A DNA stretch of 53,085 nucleotides from a virus. Its lineage: Duplodnaviria > Caudoviricetes. Below are positions 8,821 to 49,883 of this stretch, piece by piece. Both the position numbers and the translations under genes were made by a program. The stretch lies in the IMG/VR virus record IMGVR_UViG_3300021389_000031, positions 1 to 53,085 of that record. One strand, written 5' to 3'. The notes beneath the pieces were generated by a model. It saw nothing but the letters and a program-made list of their open reading frames with translations. It was not told the DNA's origin and searched no databases. Numbering within the stretch: position 1 is the first letter of the stretch; every line of letters starts with the position of its first letter.

Positions 8821-9199
8821 GATTGATTGGCAGCCCATTTTCAGGGTCTCTCGTAGAGTCCCTTGGGGGTATCGTAATGACCCAGAAGACCCCGATATCC
8901 TACTCCCAATTCCAGACGAACTTAATCTCCTAGAAGAAGCAAAACTACACGTAAAACAGTACAGCTACCGCGCAGTAGCAGAGTGGCTCACAGAGAAATC
9001 TGGGCGCTCTATCTCCCACGCGGGGCTTAGACATAGGGTTCTCATTGAAAAGCAACGACTTCAACATGAACGAAACGTCGAGCACATTGCCAAGAGGTAC
9101 GCCGAACTCCTCGAAAAGGCGAAAAAGCTCGAAGAGTCGCGTCTTGGAAAAGCCTCTAACCACAACCTCCCACGCAAAAGCCAAACCAGCGGAGATTGA
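8801..9199 (+). CDS. Recombinase-domain-like DNA-binding protein
   Basis: PWGY....L.P...E......SYR.VAEWL....ISH.GL. Confidence 0.6.
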   Translation: MTKIPTEIDWQPIFRVSRRVPWGYRNDPEDPDILLPIPDELNLLEEAKLHVKQYSYRAVAEWLTEKSGRSISHAGLRHRVLIEKQRLQHERNVEHIAKRYAELLEKAKKLEESRLGKASNHNLPRKSQTSGD

Positions 9200-10604
9200 T
9201 GTAGAGAAGGCTCAAGAAGTCATCTTCCAACCCAATCCCGGACCCCAGACCAACTTCCTCTCTGCAGCAGAACAAGAGGTAATGTATGGGGGAGCAGCGG
9301 GCGGCGGTAAAAGCTATGCCATGCTTGCAGACCCTGTGAGGAACTTCAACAACCCTCACGCCAAGCAACTTCTTGTACGCCGCTCTACGGAAGAGCTTCG
9401 AGAACTTATTTCCGTCTCAAAACAACTCTATCCTAAAGCTATTCCCGGTATCCGTTGGTTGGAGAGAGAAAAGACTTGGATCGCTCCGTCTGGAGCTTCC
9501 TTGTGGATGTCCTACCTAGACTCAGATGATGACGTTCTGCGGTACCAAGGACAGGCATTTTCTTGGATAGGTTTTGACGAACTTACCCAATGGCCAACTC
9601 CATACGCTTGGAACTACCTCCGGTCACGTCTCCGCACTACAAAAGACTCTGGCTTGAAGTTATATCAAAGATCTACAACGAACCCCGGTGGTCCCGGTAT
9701 GCAGTGGGTTAAGAAGATGTTTGTGAACCCTGCCCCTCCGGGCAAGGCTTTTTGGGCTACAGACATTGAGACAGCTAAGGTTATCACTTGGCCTAAAGGT
9801 CATTCCAGAGAGGGGCAACCTCTTTTTAAGCGTAGGTTTATTCCTGCTACACTCTTCGACAACCCCTACCTGTCAGAAGATGGTATGTATGAAGCTAACC
9901 TTCTGTCTCTCCCTGAACACCAGAGAAAACAACTCCTTGATGGTAACTGGGATGTGAACGAGGGGGCTGCTTTCCCCGAATTCAATCAAACCTTGCATAT
10001 AATAGAACCTTATGATATACCTAGGTCATGGGTCAAGTTCCGTGCAGCAGACTACGGATACGGTTCTCACTCTGGTGTTGTCTGGTTTGCAGTCTGCCCT
10101 AATGGGCAGCTTATTATCTATCGGGAGCTTTATGTCTCCAAGGTAACTGCAGTAGATCTTGCAGATATGATCCTTGATTTGGAGAGTGATGAGAACATCC
10201 GCTATGGCGTCCTTGATAGTTCTCTTTGGCATAATCGTGGTGATCGAGGTCCTTCTCTGGCAGAACAAATGATCCAACGGGGTTGTCGCTGGCGTCCAGC
10301 AGATCGCTCCAGAGGCTCTCGTGTTGCTGGTAAAAACAAGATCCACCACTTGTTGCAAGTAGATCCCTACTCGGAGTTACCGGGTATCCAGATCTTCAAT
10401 ACCTGTCGTGGGCTTATTTCTCAAATACCAGCACTACCTCTAGACAAGAAGAACCCCGAGGATATTGACACCAACTCTGAAGATCACCTCTATGATGCTC
10501 TTCGGTATGGTGTTATGACAAGACCTAAGAGTCATCTCTTTGACTATGATCCCGCTTCATCACGTAGCGGCTTTCAGATTGCAGAACCTACTTTTGGTTA
10601 TTGA
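9045..10604 (+). CDS. terL: Terminase large subunit (true start probably somewhat downstream)
   Basis: Walker A GGAAGGGKS, Walker B IGFDELT, TTNPGG, nuclease DYG and DHLYDALRY. Confidence 0.95.
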   Translation: MKSNDFNMNETSSTLPRGTPNSSKRRKSSKSRVLEKPLTTTSHAKAKPAEIDVEKAQEVIFQPNPGPQTNFLSAAEQEVMYGGAAGGGKSYAMLADPVRNFNNPHAKQLLVRRSTEELRELISVSKQLYPKAIPGIRWLEREKTWIAPSGASLWMSYLDSDDDVLRYQGQAFSWIGFDELTQWPTPYAWNYLRSRLRTTKDSGLKLYQRSTTNPGGPGMQWVKKMFVNPAPPGKAFWATDIETAKVITWPKGHSREGQPLFKRRFIPATLFDNPYLSEDGMYEANLLSLPEHQRKQLLDGNWDVNEGAAFPEFNQTLHIIEPYDIPRSWVKFRAADYGYGSHSGVVWFAVCPNGQLIIYRELYVSKVTAVDLADMILDLESDENIRYGVLDSSLWHNRGDRGPSLAEQMIQRGCRWRPADRSRGSRVAGKNKIHHLLQVDPYSELPGIQIFNTCRGLISQIPALPLDKKNPEDIDTNSEDHLYDALRYGVMTRPKSHLFDYDPASSRSGFQIAEPTFGY

Positions 10605-10609
10605 GGTTA

Positions 10610-10747
10610 ATGATGGGGATTGTCACTATTAGGAGGCGTTGTGGTGGGGCAATGCTAAGGGTAAAAAAGTCAATAAATTGGATTCTTTTTGCACGTAAGT
10701 GGGATGACAGTGGTATATGGATAGACGAGGGTACTTGGGATGATTAA
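10610..10747 (+). CDS. Small Trp/Asp-rich protein (45 aa)
   Basis: GAGG RBS; ends WILFARKWDDSGIWIDEGTWDD; overlaps the tailspike start. Confidence 0.55.
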   Translation: MMGIVTIRRRCGGAMLRVKKSINWILFARKWDDSGIWIDEGTWDD

Positions 10748-12947
10748 TAACGGTGAAAGTGGTTTTAGTGTAAGACAAAAACTAAATACTGCGTTGGAAG
10801 AGATTGATAGGCTAACCGAAATTCTTGATGATCCTCAGCCGTGGCTGGATACAGTAACCGCACTATTGGCAGATACCACGCTGACATACACTGCTGGTCA
10901 AACCGGGACCGTCACGATGGGTCAGTATATCATGACGCGGGCCGAGGGGTTCAGCTACAGCGTGGCTGCTAGTGGTGCATCGGATCACCACATCACCACG
11001 GCGGGCGGGGTTAAGCTGTATGCGCTGTCTGGCGACGTGAGGGCCTTCGGCGCTGTCGGTGATGGCGTGACCAATGATGCCGACGCTTTGATCGATGCTC
11101 TTGGAACTGGTCGAGAAGTGATCATTCCCGAAACTTCGTTCATTTCTTTGTCGGCAGGTCAGGTTCAGACGTTTATCGAGAACCTAAACCTCGTATCGCC
11201 GAAGCAGATCACGGAGTTTCTTTTGCCCGCAGGTGATCACGCGATCACGCAGCAGGTCGAGTTGACAAATCCAGACGCGCGGAACATTGTGATCAAGGGC
11301 GATGTTCGCGCTCAAGTTTCGTTGACTGCTGCGGTCAGTGTTGGCGGCGGCCCGCGCGCTCATAGCATCCGCTGCACGCTTTCCGATGCCAGCGATGTGG
11401 AGGTCGATGATTATCTCTACATCGGCTACACCAGCGGCACAGGCGTTTTCAACGCGGTTGAGGGCGTTTGGAAGGTCACGGCGAAATCTGGCAGCGACGT
11501 GACAGTCAAGAACACGATTAACGCTGCGTGGCCAACGATGACGGCGAGCGGCGGGCGTGTTGTTCCGCTCAAGACCATTCTTCGCTGGCCTGTTTCACAG
11601 CGCGGCCTTGCGATCTCTGGATGTCAGCTTCGCACGCTTGAGAACCTCGTTCTGGCGAGCCAGTTTGACATCACATCTGGATCGCCTGTCGATAGCTATT
11701 CTGATGGCCTTCAGGTCGGCACTGCATCCGACCAATTGAACACGGGCAGCTTCGAAAGCCAGCAAACGAACGGCGGCGAAATCTGGTGTAAGAATGTCGG
11801 CATCGTGGAGTGGGAAGGCAACGGCGTCCAGACTTTGGGTGGCAATGCTTACTTCTCCCAAGCTGCGGCCTGTTCCAATGGCTGGCGTGGCTTTCAGGCG
11901 GCGCGCACGGGCACGGTTGCGTGCAAGGCCTGCATTGCCAGCGGCAACGGCGCATCAGGCTTTGAGGCGGAAGCTATGGGCTTCACGAACGCCGATGATG
12001 GCGTTGCCGTAGGAAATTGGCAGCAAGGCGTTTTTGTCATTGGAGCCGCCAGCGTCAGTTTCATTGATGGCTTTTCCTTGCTGAACCAAAACGTAGGCCT
12101 CGATGCTCGTAACTACGGCACCATCCTTGCCGATGGCGCGAAAGTCGATGGCAACGTTCTTCGCGGGATCAATTCTATTGCAGGCAACGTCTTGTTCGGC
12201 GCAGGCGCGACCGCATCAAACAACGGAACAGGTGTCGGCATATCGGTCGATGTCAACACCTCAGAGGGTGGCATCGTCAACGGAAACGGCGCGTCCAGCC
12301 TCGGGATCATTCAAACTTCCACCACGACATCTTCCGTTGTGATTGACACTGACGGCGAGCAGATTTGGGGCAATGGGCTTTTTGTCGAAACCCGGTCAAC
12401 TGGTGCAAAAAACGCTATCAGAAACACCTCAATTGCTGACCTAGTCATTCAATCCGATGTGTCTGGCTCTGGGACATATCTTGATCTGTTGAGGATTAAG
12501 GGAAACGACGGAACATTCTTTCCAGATCAGGATGGCGTTCCCAATCTTGGTCGGGCTTCTGAGCGGTGGGATACCGTCTTTGCCACAACGGGAACGATCA
12601 ACACATCTGACGAGACCGAAAAACAGGACATTCGCGCAGCGACTGATGCTGAAATGCAAGTGGCGCAGGCGATCAAGTCCAGTTTTAAGATGTTCCGCTT
12701 CAAAGATGCTGTTGCTCAAAAGGGCGATGGAGCGAGGTTGCACTTCGGCGTGATTGCACAAGATGTAAAAGCGGCGTTTGAGGCAGAGGGTCTTGACCCA
12801 GAGCGCTACGGAATTTTCTGCTCGAACACTTGGTGGGTCGGTGCAGATGGAAATGTGCATGATGAACCATCTGGCGGGCTGACCGAAGTCACTCGCCTTG
12901 GCGTTCGCTATGAAGAACTGCTGGCCTTTGTGGTCGCTGCAATTTGA
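10740..12947 (+). CDS. Tailspike/depolymerase with beta-helix and C-terminal S74 intramolecular chaperone
   Basis: VRAFGAVGDGVTND entry motif, Gly/Asn beta-helix repeats, NTSD cleavage motif, HFGVIAQ, GVRYEEL. Confidence 0.88.
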   Translation: MINNGESGFSVRQKLNTALEEIDRLTEILDDPQPWLDTVTALLADTTLTYTAGQTGTVTMGQYIMTRAEGFSYSVAASGASDHHITTAGGVKLYALSGDVRAFGAVGDGVTNDADALIDALGTGREVIIPETSFISLSAGQVQTFIENLNLVSPKQITEFLLPAGDHAITQQVELTNPDARNIVIKGDVRAQVSLTAAVSVGGGPRAHSIRCTLSDASDVEVDDYLYIGYTSGTGVFNAVEGVWKVTAKSGSDVTVKNTINAAWPTMTASGGRVVPLKTILRWPVSQRGLAISGCQLRTLENLVLASQFDITSGSPVDSYSDGLQVGTASDQLNTGSFESQQTNGGEIWCKNVGIVEWEGNGVQTLGGNAYFSQAAACSNGWRGFQAARTGTVACKACIASGNGASGFEAEAMGFTNADDGVAVGNWQQGVFVIGAASVSFIDGFSLLNQNVGLDARNYGTILADGAKVDGNVLRGINSIAGNVLFGAGATASNNGTGVGISVDVNTSEGGIVNGNGASSLGIIQTSTTTSSVVIDTDGEQIWGNGLFVETRSTGAKNAIRNTSIADLVIQSDVSGSGTYLDLLRIKGNDGTFFPDQDGVPNLGRASERWDTVFATTGTINTSDETEKQDIRAATDAEMQVAQAIKSSFKMFRFKDAVAQKGDGARLHFGVIAQDVKAAFEAEGLDPERYGIFCSNTWWVGADGNVHDEPSGGLTEVTRLGVRYEELLAFVVAAI

Positions 12948-13051
12948 GGAGAAGTGAAATGACAATTCGACAACAAGGTGGAGTTACACTAAATTCAGGA
13001 AACAAAATATGGAAATAAACGATAAGCTAGTATTTGAAGAAGGCCCTTTTA

Positions 13052-13123
13052 CACTTGTTTAACTACAACCCTAATGCCCCTCGTACTGGTTTTCAGGCCA
13101 GTGATGAAAAGTTTGGATACTAA
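13052..13123 (+). pseudogene. Relic duplicate of the terL 3' end
   Basis: HLFNYNPNAPRTGFQASDEKFGY* versus TerL C-terminus HLFDYDPASSRSGFQIAEPTFGY*; 12/23 identical, no gaps. Confidence 0.8.
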
Positions 13124-13125
13124 TA

Positions 13126-15213
13126 ATGAAAACTGACGACAGAGTGTTGATGGATGAAGCTGTAGCCTCCGGGCTTAAGGACCGTTCAAAAGGTGACTAT
13201 GTTGATCGTCCTGCGGGGCAAATCTCCCAACTCGTACGGGAGAAGTACAATCGTGCATCTGATGCCCGTCAAGGGGAAGAGACTCGTTGGCTTAGGGCCT
13301 ACCGCAACTATCGGGGTATTTATGGCCCAGATGTCCAATTCACTGAGACAGAGAAGTCCCGAGTCTTTATCAAGGTCACAAAGACTAAAGTCCTTGCGGC
13401 ATATGGACAGATTACGGAAGTACTCTTCGGCAATAACCGCTTTCCCATTTCTATCAACCCCACTACCCTACCTGAGGGTGTTGTGGAGAGTGTCTATCTC
13501 GATACTAACCCACAAACATCTAGTCTGGCTCAGGGAGCCGCTCAGGGGGCACCTGCAGAGGCACCTAAGCTTCTGCCGGGGGAAACACTACGGGATTTTC
13601 GTGAGCGTCTGGGTGGCCTCTCAGCGACTCTGGAGCCTGTGAAGGATAAACTTAAGGAAGGTCCGGGTAACGGACCCACTGAAGTGGCCTTTAGCCCAGC
13701 TATGGTCTCTGCGAAGAAGATGGAGAAAAAGATCCACGACCAGCTTGAAGAATCTGATGCGAAGAAACAACTCCGCTCATCTGCTTTTGAAGCTGCACTC
13801 TTCGGCACAGGGGTCATGAAAGGTCCCTTCGCTGCAGATAAAGAGTATCCTAATTGGGATGATGAAGGTAACTACGACCCCACTATCAAAATCACCCCTC
13901 AAACTTCCTATGTGTCCCTTTGGGACTTCTACCCGGACCCAGACGCACGTAATATGGAAGAGGCTGAATTTGTGGTTCAACGCCACAAGATGTCTCGCTC
14001 CAAGCTTCGGGCACTCAAGCGCCGACCCTTCTTCCGCACCAATGCCATTGATTCTGCCCTCGTGAGTGGTGAGAGTTACATTAAAGAGTGGTGGGAGCAG
14101 GCTATGGAGGATGATGAAGACCAAGGGACTCAAGTAGAACGCTTTGAGGTCCTTGAGTTCTGGGGGTATATGGATACCTCCGCACTGAAGAAATACGGGG
14201 TGGAGATCCCCTCAGAACTTCGTGATAAGGATGAGGTCTCGGTAAACATCTGGCTTTGTAATGACCAGATCCTCCGTCTTGTCATGAACCCCTTTAAGCC
14301 TGCCTACCTACCTTACTATGCGGTGCCCTATGAGATTAACCCCTACAGTTTCTTTGGGGTAGGTGTGGCTGAGAATATGGATGACACTCAGACCTTGATG
14401 AATGGTTTCATGCGTATGTCTATTGATAACGCAGCCTTGTCCGGGAACCTTATTATCGAGATTGATGAGTCAAACTTGGTTCCGGGCCAAGACCTTTCTG
14501 TCTACCCCGGTAAGGTATTCCGTCGTGAAGGTGGTGCCCCGGGTCAGGCCATCTTTGGTACAAAGTTTCCCAACGTATCCAACGAGAATATGCAGATGTT
14601 TGACAAGGCACGTCAGCTTGCAGATGAGTCTACGGGCTTTCCTTCGTTTGCTCACGGACAGACGGGTATTACTGGTGTTGGTCGTACAGCCTCTGGCATT
14701 TCCATGTTGATGTCTGCTGCCAACGGCTCTATCCGCACCGTTATCAAGAACTTTGATGACTATCTCTTGGGGCCTTTGGGGCGAGCACTTTTCCACTTCA
14801 ATATGCAGTTTGACCACGACCAAGAAATCAAAGGTGACCTTGAAGTACGTGCTGAAGGTACCGAGTCCCTGATGGCTAATGAAGTTCGTAGCCAGCGGTT
14901 GATGCAGTTCCTTGGGGTTGTTCAAAACCCTGTACTAGCCCCATTTGCTAAAATGGACTACCTTATCCGTGAAATTGCTAAGAGTATGGAACTTGATCCC
15001 GATAAGGTAGCCAACTCTATGGGCGCTGCAGCTATTCAAGCTGAACTGCTTAAGAAGTTCCAAGCTGAAAATCCTCAGGTGGGGGCACCTCAAGCTCCTG
15101 CTGGGGTTCAAGCCCAAGACACTACTGGTAGCGGTGGTGGTAACATGGGGACTGGTTCCGTACCAACACCCGGAGAGCCGGGGTTCTCAGCTAACACTGG
15201 AGCTATGCAGTGA
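13126..15213 (+). CDS. Portal protein
   Basis: 695 aa after terminase; FYPDP, PY.FFGVGVAE, TASGISML motifs of podovirus portals. Confidence 0.9.
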   Translation: MKTDDRVLMDEAVASGLKDRSKGDYVDRPAGQISQLVREKYNRASDARQGEETRWLRAYRNYRGIYGPDVQFTETEKSRVFIKVTKTKVLAAYGQITEVLFGNNRFPISINPTTLPEGVVESVYLDTNPQTSSLAQGAAQGAPAEAPKLLPGETLRDFRERLGGLSATLEPVKDKLKEGPGNGPTEVAFSPAMVSAKKMEKKIHDQLEESDAKKQLRSSAFEAALFGTGVMKGPFAADKEYPNWDDEGNYDPTIKITPQTSYVSLWDFYPDPDARNMEEAEFVVQRHKMSRSKLRALKRRPFFRTNAIDSALVSGESYIKEWWEQAMEDDEDQGTQVERFEVLEFWGYMDTSALKKYGVEIPSELRDKDEVSVNIWLCNDQILRLVMNPFKPAYLPYYAVPYEINPYSFFGVGVAENMDDTQTLMNGFMRMSIDNAALSGNLIIEIDESNLVPGQDLSVYPGKVFRREGGAPGQAIFGTKFPNVSNENMQMFDKARQLADESTGFPSFAHGQTGITGVGRTASGISMLMSAANGSIRTVIKNFDDYLLGPLGRALFHFNMQFDHDQEIKGDLEVRAEGTESLMANEVRSQRLMQFLGVVQNPVLAPFAKMDYLIREIAKSMELDPDKVANSMGAAAIQAELLKKFQAENPQVGAPQAPAGVQAQDTTGSGGGNMGTGSVPTPGEPGFSANTGAMQ

Positions 15214-15398
15214 ACCTAAAACCTTTTGTGAATAACAAGGAACTCTACGAGGACTTCTTGGAGTTTCTTGACACAGCTATTGCTAAAGAGCACAAGAGTC
15301 TGGAACAGGCTATAGATATGGCAACGGTATACCGCACTCAAGGGTCTTTGTTTACCCTACGTAGGATGAAGACTTTGAAGGAGCAGGTTAATGGCTGA
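15210..15398 (+). CDS. Small conserved protein after the portal
   Basis: YR.QG....LR.L..LKE.V pattern. Confidence 0.75.
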   Translation: MNLKPFVNNKELYEDFLEFLDTAIAKEHKSLEQAIDMATVYRTQGSLFTLRRMKTLKEQVNG

Positions 15399-42099: not shown

Positions 42100-42442
42100 G
42101 TTTTGTTAACTCCATGAAGTGATTAAAATCTAGGATAGCTAGGGGCTTCTTCCTGTCCCCTTGGATAACCAGAAGGGGTTGGTACCCCCCAGCGTTAGCT
42201 TTAGCTTGCTCGTAAGGCCCGTATACAGCAAATGCCCTGTGTCGTTTGCACTCTACTGAGTAGGGGAAGAGTTTCCTAGCTGCAGGAGAAAGCTGCACAT
42301 CCTCCCCTCCCTGCCCCATCGCCGTACTCTTACAGTCGTCTGGCTCCAAAGAGTCGTAGGTCTCTAGTACTGCGTCCCTTACCAGTTGTTGTAGGGCACG
42401 ACCCTTACTCTTCCTTGAAGCAGTGGAGATACCTTTAGCCAT
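42083..42442 (-). CDS. PD-(D/E)XK endonuclease / Holliday junction resolvase-like
   Basis: KSKGR.LQ, G.DV.L, SVECK, QA. Confidence 0.75.
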   Translation of the reverse strand: MAKGISTASRKSKGRALQQLVRDAVLETYDSLEPDDCKSTAMGQGGEDVQLSPAARKLFPYSVECKRHRAFAVYGPYEQAKANAGGYQPLLVIQGDRKKPLAILDFNHFMELTKHAKVD

Positions 42443-43293
42443 TACTCGATGATCTCCACTACGTTAGGTTCTTTGGCTACCTTGGTGAGATAGACTGGAC
42501 CAGTACTATAAATAAATTTGCGAGCTTCTGGCCAACAGATCTTACTGAACTCGCAGTAGCTGCACTGCATTGGTAGCATCTCATTAGGAGATGTCTTAGA
42601 TTGTGGTACGGGTGTAAGGCGAGACTCAGGGATACTACCTTTAACCAACGTCTTAGCACGTTCCATCTCCTTCTCTTTTTGCTTCAACTCCTGCGTGAAG
42701 TCATATGTGTCCAAGCAAAGTTTGAACCTGTCTTTTTGGACTACAAGAAATGCGCCTTTCGTCTTGTTGGTGACTAGAGGATCATCTTTACCTGCGTAGA
42801 CGTAAGAACTTAGCTGGCTGATATACCCAAATGGGTCGTCGTTCCGAACACTGTTGGTGGCAAACTTCTGAAAGCTGTACTTGCTCGCAGACTTCACATC
42901 AACCGTTACCCCATCAATTACACAGTCTCGGTGACCTTTGATCCCATGAACCTCTAGTGTATCTTGTTCCCCCTGCACTTCGTGACCGGAAGCCTTAGCA
43001 AGGGCAATAACCAGAGCCTCAATCATATCCCCATAGAAGAAAGTTCCAAGGGACTCTGCACTAAGTTCCTCCCCTAGGTGTGAGGAGTTGACCTTGTACC
43101 AAAGCTTTCGGTCACAGGGGGTACCAATAGAAGATAGGGAGAGGTAACTTCGGGGTTGGGGTGGTTTGGAGAAGCGGTCGTTAGCTACTTTAGCTAGGTC
43201 TTTACCAAACACTTCTCCAATAGCACTTGTCCAACCCCCGAGACCCTTAACTACTTGCTCAATGTCGTAGACCAGTGTTGAGATATCTTTCAA
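42442..43293 (-). CDS. Cas4/RecB-like exonuclease
   Basis: SSIG.PC.RKLWY, GHRD, DVKSAS, Y..QL..Y, C.YC.F...CW. Confidence 0.85.
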   Translation of the reverse strand: MKDISTLVYDIEQVVKGLGGWTSAIGEVFGKDLAKVANDRFSKPPQPRSYLSLSSIGTPCDRKLWYKVNSSHLGEELSAESLGTFFYGDMIEALVIALAKASGHEVQGEQDTLEVHGIKGHRDCVIDGVTVDVKSASKYSFQKFATNSVRNDDPFGYISQLSSYVYAGKDDPLVTNKTKGAFLVVQKDRFKLCLDTYDFTQELKQKEKEMERAKTLVKGSIPESRLTPVPQSKTSPNEMLPMQCSYCEFSKICWPEARKFIYSTGPVYLTKVAKEPNVVEIIE

Positions 43294-45119: not shown

Positions 45120-45686
45120 TCAATGGATATCTGCGTATCGCACACCGAATTGTGGATCAACGTCCAGAGGGACGTTTAGGTTCAGTCGTTTGTTAACTTT
45201 AGCAATAGCCAACTTCATCTTGTTGTAAGTGTCTTGCTGATCTCCATCTTTGATTTTGACAATAGTTTCGTCGTGGAACTGCCCTATACCCTTAAGTCCC
45301 ACAGACCAACATTGAGCAAGCCATGAGTCAAAGCAGTAGACCCCTGTACTCTGGTTCAAGGAAGAGAACACATCTTTCTCATACCGAAGGCTAATCCAGA
45401 AATTAGACACAGGGTTCTTAACCCACATCTGCCCATTGATCCTGCGAATAGGTTGAGCTTCCGAAAAGGCTTTGACTGCCCAGTTCCTATCCCAGTATGC
45501 CCTAATAAGGTCTGCACATTCCTGTTCTGGCATACCTGTTGTACGGGCTAGTTTGACCTTGCCTACCCCATAGATAGCACTGTAATTTACTGCCTTAAAC
45601 CGTTTCCTTACAGCTTTCAATCGGAGATATATGGCCTCCTGCTCTGGCTTGCTTAACTTCTTCATCTCTCCTAAAGTTAACTGCAT
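45120..45686 (-). CDS. polA: DNA polymerase A, C-terminal part (motifs B and C)
   Basis: R...K.VNY...YG (motif B), NQSTG, QFHDE (motif C); own GAGGA RBS. Confidence 0.9.
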   Translation of the reverse strand: MQLTLGEMKKLSKPEQEAIYLRLKAVRKRFKAVNYSAIYGVGKVKLARTTGMPEQECADLIRAYWDRNWAVKAFSEAQPIRRINGQMWVKNPVSNFWISLRYEKDVFSSLNQSTGVYCFDSWLAQCWSVGLKGIGQFHDETIVKIKDGDQQDTYNKMKLAIAKVNKRLNLNVPLDVDPQFGVRYADIH

Positions 45687-46137
45687 CAATTGCTTCCTCT
45701 AGTTTATCAAACCTACCTAAGTACTCTTTCTTTTTATTTAAGTAAAAAGACGCATCATACTTACCTTTATGGTAGTGAACACCCTTAGTGCCAGTCTTAT
45801 TATTGCGCCTAGCATATGTGTTAAAGGCATTTAGCTGTTTATCAGCGCCCCTCAGGTTGCTTGGGAGATTGTTAGACGTATTCCGATCAATGTGATCCAC
45901 ACAAGCAGGTAAGTACCCGTTACTGATAAAGAAGATAATCCTATGCACTAGCATCCTATATCGGAGACCATCTTCTGTCTTAAAGTTGACTTGTAAGTAT
46001 CCATTTTTATCAGGTGACCCAAGTGGCCTACCTGCAACCCTTGAGTTACTCTCCTCCCGTCTCCATGAAACAGGTTTGCCAAAAAGGACCCCATCCCGGA
46101 TCTCGAACAGTTCCTCTAGTTGTTCCCTTCGTACCAT
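45595..46137 (-). CDS. HNH-AP2 homing endonuclease inserted in polA
   Basis: HRII..VDHIDRN..NN..SNLR HNH; N.TG.KGV..YLGRF...EEA AP2-like domain. Confidence 0.9.
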   Translation of the reverse strand: MVRREQLEELFEIRDGVLFGKPVSWRREESNSRVAGRPLGSPDKNGYLQVNFKTEDGLRYRMLVHRIIFFISNGYLPACVDHIDRNTSNNLPSNLRGADKQLNAFNTYARRNNKTGTKGVHYHKGKYDASFYLNKKKEYLGRFDKLEEAIDAVNFRRDEEVKQARAGGHISPIESCKETV

Positions 46138-47462
46138 ATGTAAAATTGCTCCTCATCTGAAGTAATAACCCCCGCAAATTTTGAGAGGTTAATGTGCTCG
46201 TCAAACCCCGGCTTAGACATCTCCTCTACGTAGTCTGGATCATACGGGTGCATGTAGTGTCTCTTTGTAGTGGATTCTAGAGAGACCATATCTGCCCCAC
46301 AAAGTAATTCCCCTTCTTCGCAAGTTAGAGATCCCCGTATTTCTTTACCCCAAGGTTTATCAACCCCCGGGAGGTTCACGAGCGGTTTAGAGTGTTTGAA
46401 CCGAAGTGTGTTAGTAAGACCTGCAATCTCTGCCTTCACGTAGCCGTTGATGTGGCTATCAAGGATACCTTGAAAGGTCGCCAGTCTGTGTTGCAAGACA
46501 GTTAGTCCATCGAGAACCTCTACTGCAGGGTCTACATCAATCAGGAGTTTGACCGAAGGTGTAAGCTCTCCATCTTTTCTGACTTGTGGGACTTGTCGTT
46601 CCACCCCCTCATCGTTTGTCTTGTAGTCGAAGGTGCAAGGTTGCCACCCCAGAGAGTATAGCCATGCCTTAACTTGATCGGAGCTTCCGGGGTTAGCTTC
46701 CTCTTCCTTATCAAGGACCTTTACGGGTTCGTCATGAGTACGGTCAAGGCCAAGATCATCAAGAGTAGCGAACCAACGATCCCCAAGTACGGAGGGGGTC
46801 CCGTCTTTTTTGAAGGGGTTCTTCGGTTTTGTGACAACCTTGTACTTCTTGTTCTTTGGCATAACCTTTGTGAGTTCAACTGTCTTCTCCTCTTTGAGTT
46901 GGGTAAGGGTTTCTATAGAAGACCTCACCAGATCCAAATCAACCTTCCAGCCAACTTGCTCTTGATAGGCTGCACACTCCATCTTGAAGGAGAGATACTT
47001 GAGAAACCTGTCAGCCTCTTTCTTGTCCTTATAGAGAAACATCAGACGCTTGGTCAAGTCTTTCCAGAGCTTCCAGTTGATTTTGACATCTTCTGCACAG
47101 CGATGCCCGTACTCTTCTTTAGTAAGACTCTTCCAATCCTCGACATGTGGTTTGGGGACTCCGTACTTCTCCCCATAGAACTCTAGACCATGCTTGAGTT
47201 GATCGTGATCTAGGTACCAAGCCAGTGGTAGTGTGTCGTAAAAAGTGGCTGTGATATCTACACCAAGGATCTTCTTGATAACCCTCTTGTCGTACCGGAT
47301 ACCGTTGTGGGCGACAAGCCAATTTGCACTGGTCAAGAAGTCCCGCATGTCACCGTAGTCATACAAGACCGTAGGCTCTTCCCCAGCACGGGTGTAGGCT
47401 AGGCAGTGGATCTTGGTTGCGCCCTCATACAGATCGTCTGCTTCAATGTCGAATACTGCCAA
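46116..47462 (-). CDS. polA: DNA polymerase A, N-terminal part (3'-5' exonuclease, thumb, motif A)
   Basis: TTG 47462 after GGAGG; FDIEAD, HNGI.YD, C..DV exonuclease motifs; T.RF.H..P.VNLP; GADM.SLE motif A. Confidence 0.9.
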   Translation of the reverse strand: MAVFDIEADDLYEGATKIHCLAYTRAGEEPTVLYDYGDMRDFLTSANWLVAHNGIRYDKRVIKKILGVDITATFYDTLPLAWYLDHDQLKHGLEFYGEKYGVPKPHVEDWKSLTKEEYGHRCAEDVKINWKLWKDLTKRLMFLYKDKKEADRFLKYLSFKMECAAYQEQVGWKVDLDLVRSSIETLTQLKEEKTVELTKVMPKNKKYKVVTKPKNPFKKDGTPSVLGDRWFATLDDLGLDRTHDEPVKVLDKEEEANPGSSDQVKAWLYSLGWQPCTFDYKTNDEGVERQVPQVRKDGELTPSVKLLIDVDPAVEVLDGLTVLQHRLATFQGILDSHINGYVKAEIAGLTNTLRFKHSKPLVNLPGVDKPWGKEIRGSLTCEEGELLCGADMVSLESTTKRHYMHPYDPDYVEEMSKPGFDEHINLSKFAGVITSDEEQFYIWYEGNN

Positions 47463-47463
47463 G

Positions 47464-47784
47464 TCATTCCTCCAGTTCTCCTTGAATTGAAAGGATAAGG
47501 TCGGGGACATCTCCTGTCAAGACTGTGACCCCTTGATCCTTGTACATATATAGCACACTCCAACCATATGGATCGTATCCATAGGAGTCTTTACCACACC
47601 TATAGATCGAACCACTATACCCCAAGAACTCATAGAAGTTCGAGTGTTCTACAATCTTTGTGATGCCACTGTTAAACCTCCAACTATGGCCAACAAGATA
47701 ACCGCCTGACCAAGTGCCGAACACCCGATAACAATTGGGGGTTTTCACTAGGACCCACCTATCTGGTGTATAAATGCTAACCAT
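47464..47784 (-). CDS. Conserved hypothetical phage protein
   Basis: PDRWV...W.GGYL...SWR.NSGI....G.SGS.Y.C. Confidence 0.75.
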   Translation of the reverse strand: MVSIYTPDRWVLVKTPNCYRVFGTWSGGYLVGHSWRFNSGITKIVEHSNFYEFLGYSGSIYRCGKDSYGYDPYGWSVLYMYKDQGVTVLTGDVPDLILSIQGELEE

Positions 47785-49613: not shown

Positions 49614-49883
49614 TCAGTTCTTAGAGGGTTTTGTTGCGGCCTTTACGGCCCACATTGCCGCGCTCTCAATTTCGGTCTGCGCGAGTGCCTTTAAGCGGCC
49701 CACCTCAGCACTTTGCGGGTCTACAACAGATGCTTTACCAAGCCCACTCACACTGTCAAGTTTAGGTAGAGGGATTGCTTCAATCAGGTCGATTAGATCA
49801 GCCGCAGCACGTTTGATTTTACCTACTGTGTCTTCATTGCTGGGGTTGAAGTTGATCCCCACTTTGTATTCACCCTTAGTCAT
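49614..49883 (-). CDS. Acb2/Tad1-like hairpin protein (candidate anti-defence sponge)
   Basis: R..ALAQT.IE.AAMWAVKA C-terminal helix, 89 aa. Confidence 0.6.
   Translation of the reverse strand: MTKGEYKVGINFNPSNEDTVGKIKRAAADLIDLIEAIPLPKLDSVSGLGKASVVDPQSAEVGRLKALAQTEIESAAMWAVKAATKPSKN

Follow-up and report, generated by a model that had tools for sequence, protein, structure and literature searches.

We analyzed the locus between the large terminase gene (terL) and the portal gene in IMG/VR record IMGVR_UViG_3300021389_000031 (Duplodnaviria; Caudoviricetes). The window, by which we mean the whole stretch of DNA that was analyzed, comprises all 53,085 nucleotides (nt) of that record. It is a near-complete HMO-2011-type marine podophage (~95% estimated completeness), as indicated by its hallmark TerL and portal proteins, its gene order, and its genome size. 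Between terL and the portal gene lies a tailspike cassette of about 2.5 kb, flanked by two different versions of the TerL C-terminal end. We find evidence that the upstream, working version is of a sister-clade type, while the downstream version is, at least in its distal part, the native end of terL displaced by the cassette.

The terL–portal locus

The window belongs to a well-defined phage group. Its TerL shares 67.8% amino acid (aa) identity with that of phage HMO-2011 and is most similar to that of CRP-9 (75.9%), within a range of 67-76% to Roseobacter phages CRP-9, CRP-13, CRP-2, and CRP-603 and Puniceispirillum phage HMO-2011. The order terS, small open reading frame (ORF), terL, portal, small ORF, very large ORF is common to the window and the cultured members. 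The window also encodes PhoH, class II ribonucleotide reductase (RNR), MazG, and ThyX; RNR, PhoH, MazG, and ThyX are listed as features of the HMO-2011-type group (PMC9038755). Tail fibres and tailspikes are absent from the main text of that paper, one passage of which describes HMO-2011-type phages as dominant and widespread marine viruses.

The terL gene occupies 9045-10604 on the plus strand (Pfam Terminase_6N, 39.3 bits). Its start codon is uncertain, and the database versions of the protein begin at residue 34 (P0362 and P0363, identical 486-aa sequences). The portal gene occupies 13126-15213 on the same strand (Pfam SU10_portal, 110 bits). From the 74 ORFs listed for the window, 46 were scanned with Pfam and 30 with PHROGs, and no integrase or site-specific recombinase was found among them.

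Two TerL ends

terL stops at 10604, and its C-terminal end reads HLFDYDPASSRSGFQIAEPTFGY before the stop codon. Downstream of the tailspike, the frame 13031-13123 translates as YLKKALLHLFNYNPNAPRTGFQASDEKFGY followed by a stop, and the portal ATG lies at 13126, 2 nt after that stop. We refer to the working TerL tail (HLFDYDPASSRSGFQIAEPTFGY; 10533-10604) as copy 1 and to the displaced tail remnant (HLFNYNPNAPRTGFQASDEKFGY; 13052-13123) as copy 2. Both are on the plus strand and end in a stop codon. They are identical at 12 of 23 aa and 40 of 72 nt.

Each copy is a genuine TerL end, with a score that chance cannot explain. When a position matrix is derived from the 164 unique TerL ends among 279 related loci, copy 1 receives 55.3 bits and copy 2 receives 46.7 bits; of the 45,104 stop-free 23-mers obtained by translating the window in six frames, the runner-up reaches -32.7. 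The original prediction, made from the sequence before any database search, held that two terL 3′ ends surround a tailspike cassette. This is borne out, and the downstream peptide stands far from the chance level that would have spoken against it. A second TerL end in the same locus was found in none of the 279 related loci.

The two copies are no more alike than tails drawn from the family at random. Their 40/72 nt identity is close to that of random family pairs (mean 42/72), and each copy matches the tails of other phages better (53-54/72). They are unlike at tail nt 3, 4, 6, 10, 15, and 16, and their longest in-register identical run is 6 nt (TTTCAG). At the TerL end, the pattern G-F-Q-x-x-D-x-x-F-G-Y-stop is nearly invariant in the HMO-2011-type family. 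Copy 1 has Glu where all 164 unique relatives' tails have Asp. Copy 2 has Asn at tail position 4, which occurs in 0 of the 164 and which we read as decay of an untranslated remnant. Both copies begin with His, which starts none of the 164 more distant tails. The start HLFDYD is, nevertheless, common to P0121-P0132 and L459-L461, indicating that the leading His is a trait of the window's sub-lineage.

Cassette-less alleles

Near-identical alleles that lack the cassette exist. We aligned Logan contigs, and contigs only, from four sequencing runs (X1, X2, X4, and X5) over positions 9000-15300. The whole stretch is present in X1, which may be the window's source sample; 46% of sampled words are present in X2, which comes from another sample and study. 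A single 11.5-kb X1 contig (depth 40) spans 9000-15300 with 0 mismatches. X2 and X4 each contain short, low-depth contigs that match the two flanks, and some stretches of the cassette, without a difference. Parts of the stretch are without cover in X2, X4, and X5, and the contigs of X1 are uninformative on a cassette-less joint.

One 354-nt contig from X2 (depth ~4) joins 10548 to 13068 in frame, skipping the 2,519 nt at 10549-13067 of the plus strand, with one letter that fits both sides. The joint is in register, as 10548 is tail nt 16 of copy 1 and 13068 is tail nt 17 of copy 2. Most of copy 1 (10549-10604) is missing from this allele. The contig's left end lies at 10425, and it differs from the window at 7 positions in the 124 nt left of the joint and at 1 position in the 229 nt right of it (13068-13296). 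No C-to-G change is among the differences, though copy 2 has TTG where copy 1 has CTC, which needs one. Cassette-bearing and cassette-less forms thus occur in one and the same sample.

Protein databases hold TerLs of the same kind. P0121 (from an 8,759-nt contig) and P0361 (from a 3,612-nt contig) are, before residue 504 and leaving the start codon aside, unlike the window TerL solely at residue 319. Their ends read HLFDYD-PNAHRTGFQASDEKFGY: the first 7 residues are those of copy 1, and 16 of the last 17 are those of copy 2. Over the full tail, copy 2 differs from these ends at 3 of 23 residues (D4N, D6N, and H10P). Portal P0241, also from an 8,759-nt contig, differs from the window portal (P0364) at one residue when both 695-aa sequences are read. 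The equal contig size suggests that P0121 and P0241 lie on one contig, with terL next to portal. A separate 18,994-nt contig encodes P0362, which has the same TerL sequence as the window, including the copy-1 end. A back-translated pattern of the copy-2 end plus ATG had no match in the viral or metagenome contig collections.

The empty-site relatives and cassette-less molecules that the original prediction suggested looking for were therefore found, the former with TerL ends of copy-2 type at 16 of 17 distal residues and the latter as the X2 contig. We considered whether this contig might be a deletion product of recombination between copy 1 and copy 2. We reject this because the joint shares 1 nt despite the available 6-nt in-register TTTCAG, and because the left flank differs at 7 of 124 positions from the co-occurring cassette strain.

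Origin of the two copies

Copy 1 is foreign to the TerL body that it terminates. A sister clade, P0122-P0128, has TerLs 85-86% identical to the window's, which end in HLFDYDPAASRSGFQIADPTFGY or close variants. Copy 1 is identical to sister-clade tails (P0122-P0124) at 21 of 23 residues. Over residues 1-260, sister-clade portals share only 74-75% identity with that of the window, taking portals with contig sizes that match those of the TerLs (17,375, 6,182, and 19,098 nt for P0122, P0127, and P0128, respectively). This indicates that the window is a P0121-type phage in which the last 17 terL codons were swapped for a sister-clade-type end.

Copy 2, at least in its distal 56 nt (13068-13123), appears to be the displaced native terL end of the recipient, which once abutted the portal gene. 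The original prediction of an ancestral terL end downstream of the tailspike is supported for these 56 nt by the direct junctions in relatives and by the cassette-less alleles. The first 16 nt of copy 2 (13052-13067, encoding HLFNY) probably come from an older remnant in the donor. Recipient DNA would resume only at 13068, because the X2 contig aligned on copy 1 up to 10548, rather than on copy 2 from 13052, and because it has no C-to-G change. If the first 16 nt are not the recipient's, they would imply that the primary event is older and took place in a donor lineage, with ordinary homologous recombination as the later route of transfer.

Composition of the cassette

The cassette is a mosaic of at least three origins, rather than one incoming piece. 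It begins with a 45-aa ORF (10610-10747, plus strand), the stop of which overlaps the tailspike ATG. This ORF has no Pfam or PHROG match, and homologs are absent from all fetched loci. The 735-aa tailspike follows (10740-12947, plus strand). It matches tail fibre and tail spike families in PHROGs (E 1.9e-45), and its PDB sequence matches are phage tail fibres, tail spikes, and an endosialidase. A Peptidase_S74 domain (PF13884; 41.6 bits, cut-off 22), the C-terminal intramolecular chaperone of such proteins, is encoded at 12606-12791 (residues 623-684). No Pfam family exceeds its cut-off in residues 100-590. The tailspike would act as an added host-recognition or depolymerase protein. Its 90% protein cluster holds the window's protein only.

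The N-proximal and distal parts of the tailspike have different relatives. A conserved N-proximal domain (10851-11039, residues ~38-100) is shared with 273 proteins at E<=0.01, in which it is joined to diverse C-terminal domains, including pectate-lyase-like, SGNH, sialate esterase, and S74 domains; homologs frequently carry PF12708 or PF13229. In none of 77 IMG/VR loci bearing this domain does an HMO-type terL lie within 8 kb. One of the IMG/VR loci, L303, has three ORFs with the domain on one contig (~1325-10254) and is likely a phage with several tailspikes.

From 11061 to 12985, that is, from about residue 100 through the tailspike stop plus 38 nt beyond, the window has 78.5% nt identity to IMG/VR locus L090; 11799-12985 has 81.2% nt identity to locus L091. 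The gene order of L090 is a 747-aa tailspike, a 257-aa S74 fibre that starts with MTIRQQGGV, a 100-aa ORF, and a T7-type terminase, which points to a podophage type unrelated to the window. The same limits recur in X5: its contigs that resemble the tailspike (~90-98% identical) begin at 11061 and end at 12976.

Downstream of the tailspike is the stump of a second fibre gene (12959-13018, plus strand). Its first nine codons (12959-12985), MTIRQQGGV, are the start of the L090 S74 fibre; the homology to L090 stops at 12985, and unrelated residues follow up to a stop codon at 13016-13018. Positions 12986-13051 are a 66-nt AT-rich filler with no match in any fetched locus. The frame of copy 2 can start at a TTG at 13034, giving a possible 29-aa mini-ORF (13034-13123) whose stop is separated from the portal ATG by 2 nt. 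This mini-ORF shares its frame with the truncated fibre start, with two stops between them, and might permit translational coupling to portal.

The tailspike body has a GC content of 0.55, the left edge of the cassette 0.39-0.44, and its right edge (12948-13051) 0.35. Neither the phage collection nor the fetched loci contain a homolog of the 45-aa ORF, the filler, or tailspike residues 1-37, apart from weak tailspike N-terminal matches over the full length of that part (44-56% identity) in 11 of the 77 N-proximal-domain loci. Only chance-sized direct or inverted repeats flank the cassette, and no convincing promoter or terminator was detected at it (3 promoter-like sites against 2.0 +/- 1.4 expected). 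Pfam and PHROGs detect no nuclease gene in the cassette.

The small ORF, the S74-chaperoned tailspike, and the truncated gene start that were originally predicted between the TerL ends are all present, and the tailspike's described GC richness is real but modest (0.55 in the body against 0.485 genome-wide). The original prediction further proposed that one incoming segment supplied both a new terL tail and the tailspike. A foreign tail is supported by the 21 of 23 residues shared with the sister clade; a single segment is not, given the mosaic cassette and the two-step history outlined below.

The terL–portal junction in relatives

In the large majority of related phages, terL directly adjoins the portal gene. 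We pooled at least 80 IMG/VR loci found by TerL, 9 cultured or named phages, at least 120 loci found by the tail motif, and at least 80 metagenome loci found by portal, together with L373-L376, L377, and L459-L461 where the tail motif was present. The 286 loci with a tail motif reduce to 221 non-redundant junctions, of which 219 are evaluable (two are too short). Among the matches listed, relatives found by TerL and by portal have at most 76% and 73% identity to the window, respectively; the closer clade came from the protein search.

The portal start lies within 45 nt of the terL stop in 203 of the 221 pooled junctions, which is 203 of the 219 evaluable ones. Ten of the remainder have 46-250 extra nt, three are longer (318, 572, and 663 nt), and three have no portal in the first 300 nt. 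Extended sequence for these last three shows that one contains an HNH-type ORF of 161 aa, another a zinc-ribbon ORF together with an ORF of 68 aa, and the third an ORF of 68 aa. The spacing from terL stop to portal is 3-10 nt in eight of nine cultured relatives; copy 2 keeps 2 nt. Inserts occur in 16 of 219 evaluable junctions, are at most ~0.7 kb, and never include a structural gene. The 2.5 kb of the window is the largest terL–portal insert, and the sole carrier of a tail gene, in the pooled junctions.

This distribution marks the junction as a site into which small ORFs and HNH endonucleases have inserted repeatedly. It does not support the proposal that the terL tail is a recurrent hotspot for host-range cassettes: no tail gene is present at the other 219 evaluable junctions, and none of the 77 loci with the spike domain adjoins an HMO-type terL.

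A 36-46-aa zinc-ribbon ORF (CPKC...CPxC...NGPWK) directly follows the terL stop in a minority of loci (L014, L015, L046, L060, L373, L376, and others), sometimes followed in turn by a conserved 68-aa ORF. The short inserts examined in L014, L015, L046, L060, and the L168 contig each contain such a zinc-ribbon ORF. A different arrangement is seen in the HTVC033P subgroup (L378, Pelagibacter phage HTVC033P, 3925-4865; L379-L458), where small ORFs take up 741-1703 nt between terL and portal in each of the 57 loci with both genes. In this subgroup, one conserved ORF ends in MADEKDY-stop and another in DPAIFRMAEERDY-stop, the latter often directly before portal, and these ends resemble the TerL end YRMADNKFGY-stop of some members. 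They may derive from old TerL ends that were displaced and captured as the ends of ORFs, or the ORFs may encode small proteins imitating the portal-docking peptide.

Locus L074 represents a second, independent tail-restoring insertion. Its terL reads GCTGAC followed by CAGAAATTTGGGTACTAG, and then a 183-aa ORF with an HNH-type motif that ends in GAAGAC followed by TTCGGCTACTAA, the spacer, and portal. The empty site is seen in L056 and L260, which read GCTGAC AATACC TTCGGCTACTAA with the same spacer and portal as L074 and are 96% identical to it over the 502-800 nt compared on each side. Thus, L074 has a 559-nt cassette in place of 6 nt, inside the last six terL codons. The cassette brings its own QKFGY-stop, and the native FGY-stop is fused in frame to the HNH ORF, directly before portal.

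In L089 (MW202701) and L375, terL is likewise followed by a homologous HNH ORF, and no remnant is present; the L089 ORF is below the Pfam HNH cut-off (17.3 bits vs 21.4, E 0.0055). Among tail-bearing loci with more than 300 nt downstream, L074 alone has a second FGY-stop within 4 kb, apart from one chance match 3.6 kb away. Of the other cargoes expected to show the same duplication, one was found, the HNH endonuclease of L074, and none of them was a host-range cargo.

Evolutionary history of the locus

We consider it likely that a native terL end was displaced, that the insert brought a substitute end, and that recombination between related phages, with no integrase, was responsible. What we observed, and start from, is that the TerL end is duplicated, that terL adjoins portal directly in relatives, that alleles without the cassette exist, that copy 1 has a foreign affinity, and that the cassette is a mosaic. 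Within this general statement, we give an even chance to a specific two-step history.

Under the two-step history, the ancestor would have had its terL stop a few nt before the portal ATG, as nearly all relatives do. A primary event in an older donor lineage would have displaced the terL end of that lineage, leaving the order terL, cassette, remnant, portal. A recent double homologous crossover would then have carried the cassette into a near-identical cassette-less background of P0121 type. The left crossover would lie within the last ~100 nt of terL and the right one inside the remnant, at 13067/13068, so that a composite receptor-binding cassette of ~2.5 kb comes to sit inside the last 72 nt of terL. 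The asymmetry in mismatches (7/124 against 1/229), together with the contig's left end at 10425, fits a donor-derived stretch starting at roughly 10455. Incoming DNA would supply the substitute end, that is, the distal 17 codons of copy 1, of sister-clade type. The recipient's last 56 nt, the 2-nt spacer, and the portal ATG would stay as an untranslated copy 2, keeping the native upstream context of portal. No site-specific recombinase would be required, and the original prediction of exchange with no integrase agrees with the scans of 46 (Pfam) and 30 (PHROGs) ORFs.

This arrangement would leave both genes functional. In T3, lambda, SPP1, and P22, the portal is bound through the C-terminus of TerL (reviewed in PMC13595956), and by analogy the window TerL tail would dock on its portal. 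Because that part docks on portal in other phages, an insertion in it would be viable only with a replaced end. The translation start region of portal would fall within the last terL codons, because only 2-12 nt separate the terL stop from the portal ATG. An insert that keeps the last codons before portal and gives terL a new end would therefore disturb neither gene.

Several points weigh against the explanation as a whole. At the nucleotide level, the empty site is supported by one 354-nt contig of depth ~4, and the places of its seven left mismatches, and with them the left crossover, are inferred. P0121 and P0361 are known as proteins, and the placement of TerL P0121 and portal P0241 on one contig is taken from equal contig size. 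No contig of X2 or X4 bridges either cassette junction; the independent junction support is X1, a possible source sample. A donor with the cassette beside a copy-1-type terL was not found, and the primary event is itself unexplained. Finally, if the alignment trimmed overlapping pieces, copy 2 could be a complete tail with few point changes, arising in one step.

Such a one-step displacement is the simplest history. Here, a single segment with a new terL end and cargo would have entered this lineage, and copy 2 would be the full native 72-nt tail with few changes. Consistent with this, copy 2 differs from the P0121 and P0361 ends at just three residues. Given GAC or GAT codons in the cassette-less allele, both D-to-N replacements would be G-to-A changes, and Asn4, seen in 0 of 164 functional tails, fits a decaying remnant. 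Most of the seven left mismatches of the X2 contig could then fall in tail nt 1-16. We nevertheless regard one step as somewhat unlikely, since the joint is at 10548/13068 and not near 10532/13052, and a copy-2-like contig should align to copy 2. Moreover, the C-to-G change that TTG against CTC demands is not listed for X2, and several changes in 16 nt against at most one in the next 229 nt is not uniform decay.

Spread by homing, which would be compatible with the two-step history, seems unlikely as well, and slightly more so. An endonuclease would cut the cassette-less junction during co-infection, and repair would copy the cassette. This would account for the clustering of breakpoints at the tail. 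The HNH ORFs at the terL–portal junction of L074, L089, and L375 are homologous (blastp E 1.7e-46 to 2e-15), L074 can be cleanly paired with empty-site relatives and brings its own replacement for the terL end, and the window has an HNH_3 endonuclease at 45595-46137. Passages of PMC10448857 report homing endonuclease genes near or within essential phage genes, often near terminase genes. Nonetheless, the window's own cassette holds no nuclease gene, and the L074 insertion is at tail codons 18-21, while that of the window is at codon 6. According to parts of PMC12724721, terminase-adjacent HNH proteins can also be packaging factors.

It is improbable that the cassette entered by a Campbell-type event. 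In this scenario, a small circular cassette with one hybrid tail, its proximal part as in copy 2 and its distal part as in copy 1, would have undergone a single reciprocal, in-register crossover at tail nt 16-18, by a recombinase acting in trans or by homeologous recombination. Copies 1 and 2 would be hybrids resembling attL and attR, and the cassette-less tail would be attB. The cassette-less allele is indeed copy-1-like to nt 16 and copy-2-like from nt 17, both copies break in the same register, and the P0121 and P0361 tails begin with the same 7 residues as copy 1 and share 15 of their 16 final residues with copy 2. However, no integrase or recombinase is among the scanned ORFs, 1 nt is shared at the joint, and the longest in-register run is 6 nt. 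No back-joint indicative of a circle was found in the contigs of the four runs, though contigs drop rare forms. The flanks, 94% identical on the left and 99.6% on the right, are unlike a simple recent integration, and a double homologous crossover with a remnant-bearing donor gives the same picture without a circle.

An assembly chimera, such that no real molecule has the cassette between terL and portal, is highly improbable. The record is a metagenome assembly and the tailspike body is also found in an unrelated phage type, but the 11.5-kb X1 contig from a second assembler spans the whole region (possibly from the same reads), contigs identical to cassette and flanks co-occur in X2 and X4, a window-type TerL with the copy-1 end is on a separate contig, and a k-mer assembler would not be misled by copies so unlike. 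Also disfavored, at a similarly low probability, is a tandem duplication in place, in which the two copies of the terL end diverged and the cargo was later inserted between them, since the shared initial His is a sub-lineage trait (HLFDYD), the copies are no more alike than the family background, and each is closer to the tails of other phages (copy 1 at 21/23 to the sister clade, the distal part of copy 2 at 16/17 to the cassette-less allele).

A broader proposal is that the TerL tail of HMO-2011-type phages is a portable docking site for non-autonomous cassettes, each of which carries its own tail copy, so that terL is restored on insertion, and is moved between co-infecting phages by the in-register crossover of a small circle or by endonuclease-triggered repair. 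The window and L074 cassettes would be two members of this system, and the HTVC033P-subgroup small ORFs with tail-like ends might be its older relics. We hold this to be doubtful. If true, an integrase-less cassette system could carry host-range genes through a highly abundant group of marine phages.

Other features of the window and of related TerLs

Some related phages may harbor an intein in terL. TerLs P0129, P0130, P0166, and P0217 are 748-827 aa long and 76-81% identical to the window's over residues 380-519. Three of the four contain LAGLIDADG_3 (PF14528), while P0217 has no Pfam domain on record, which suggests an intein in these long TerLs.

Three further loci lie on the minus strand of the window. 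The HNH_3 endonuclease ORF (45595-46137) lies between a 464-aa ORF without a Pfam match and a 189-aa DNA_pol_A ORF, and in this region (45120-47510) a homing endonuclease may have interrupted a gene for DNA polymerase. An 89-aa ORF (49614-49883) has an Acb2/Tad1 hairpin domain (48.3 bits, cut-off 27), making its product a candidate sponge for cyclic-nucleotide defence signals. Finally, 42442-43293 has a weak match to PD-(D/E)XK nucleases (20.7 bits, below the cut-off of 22). If this is a real nuclease, it might belong to a recombination module of the phage with a bearing on the exchanges discussed above.

Relation to known systems and biological meaning

Insertion that restores the end of a gene is a hallmark of integrase-mediated elements, which use att sites in tRNA or protein genes. 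Like these, the window has a new 3′ end, cargo, and a displaced old 3′ end, with an empty site in close relatives. Unlike these, it has no integrase that we could find, no identical core (40/72 nt between copies; 1 nt at the joint), and no circle in the contigs. The host molecule is also a lytic-type phage genome, not a chromosome.

Tailspike receptor-binding bodies are known to be swapped modularly on conserved N-terminal anchors. The window tailspike conforms to this, as its N-proximal domain occurs in 273 proteins with different bodies and its own body has 78-81% nt identity to an unrelated podophage. It departs from it in lying outside the tail module, between terL and portal, as in none of the 77 other loci with the domain. 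Morons are extra genes inserted between conserved phage genes. The window tailspike is likewise an extra gene of different composition between adjacent core genes and is absent from relatives; unlike morons, it was inserted inside a gene end, duplicating that end, and has no promoter or terminator signal of its own above chance.

The closest parallel is the L074 cassette, which is also inserted inside the TerL tail, with its own replacement end and the native end directly before portal. It differs from that of the window in its cargo (a 183-aa HNH-type ORF rather than a structural gene), in displacing three codons plus the stop, and in its site, 12 codons downstream. Passages of PMC10448857 and PMC12724721 describe homing endonuclease genes near terminase genes, flanking large near-identical regions. 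The window insertion resembles free-standing genes of this kind in lying next to or within an essential gene, and exchange of flanking DNA between related phages is proposed for them in those passages; it differs in that the window's insert contains no nuclease gene. The passages of PMC10448857 consulted include none on 'portal' and none relevant to duplication or truncation. A limited literature search found no description of a duplicated TerL end around cargo.

These findings document a natural presence/absence polymorphism: within a single species-level population, some members carry an extra tailspike, located outside the tail module, and others do not. They also suggest a rule for tolerated insertion, which L074 follows too: the insert brings a substitute end, and the old end remains as the upstream region of the next gene. 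Thus, the integrase-free movement of host-recognition genes between lytic marine phages, and the role of nucleases at the terL/portal junction, become testable.

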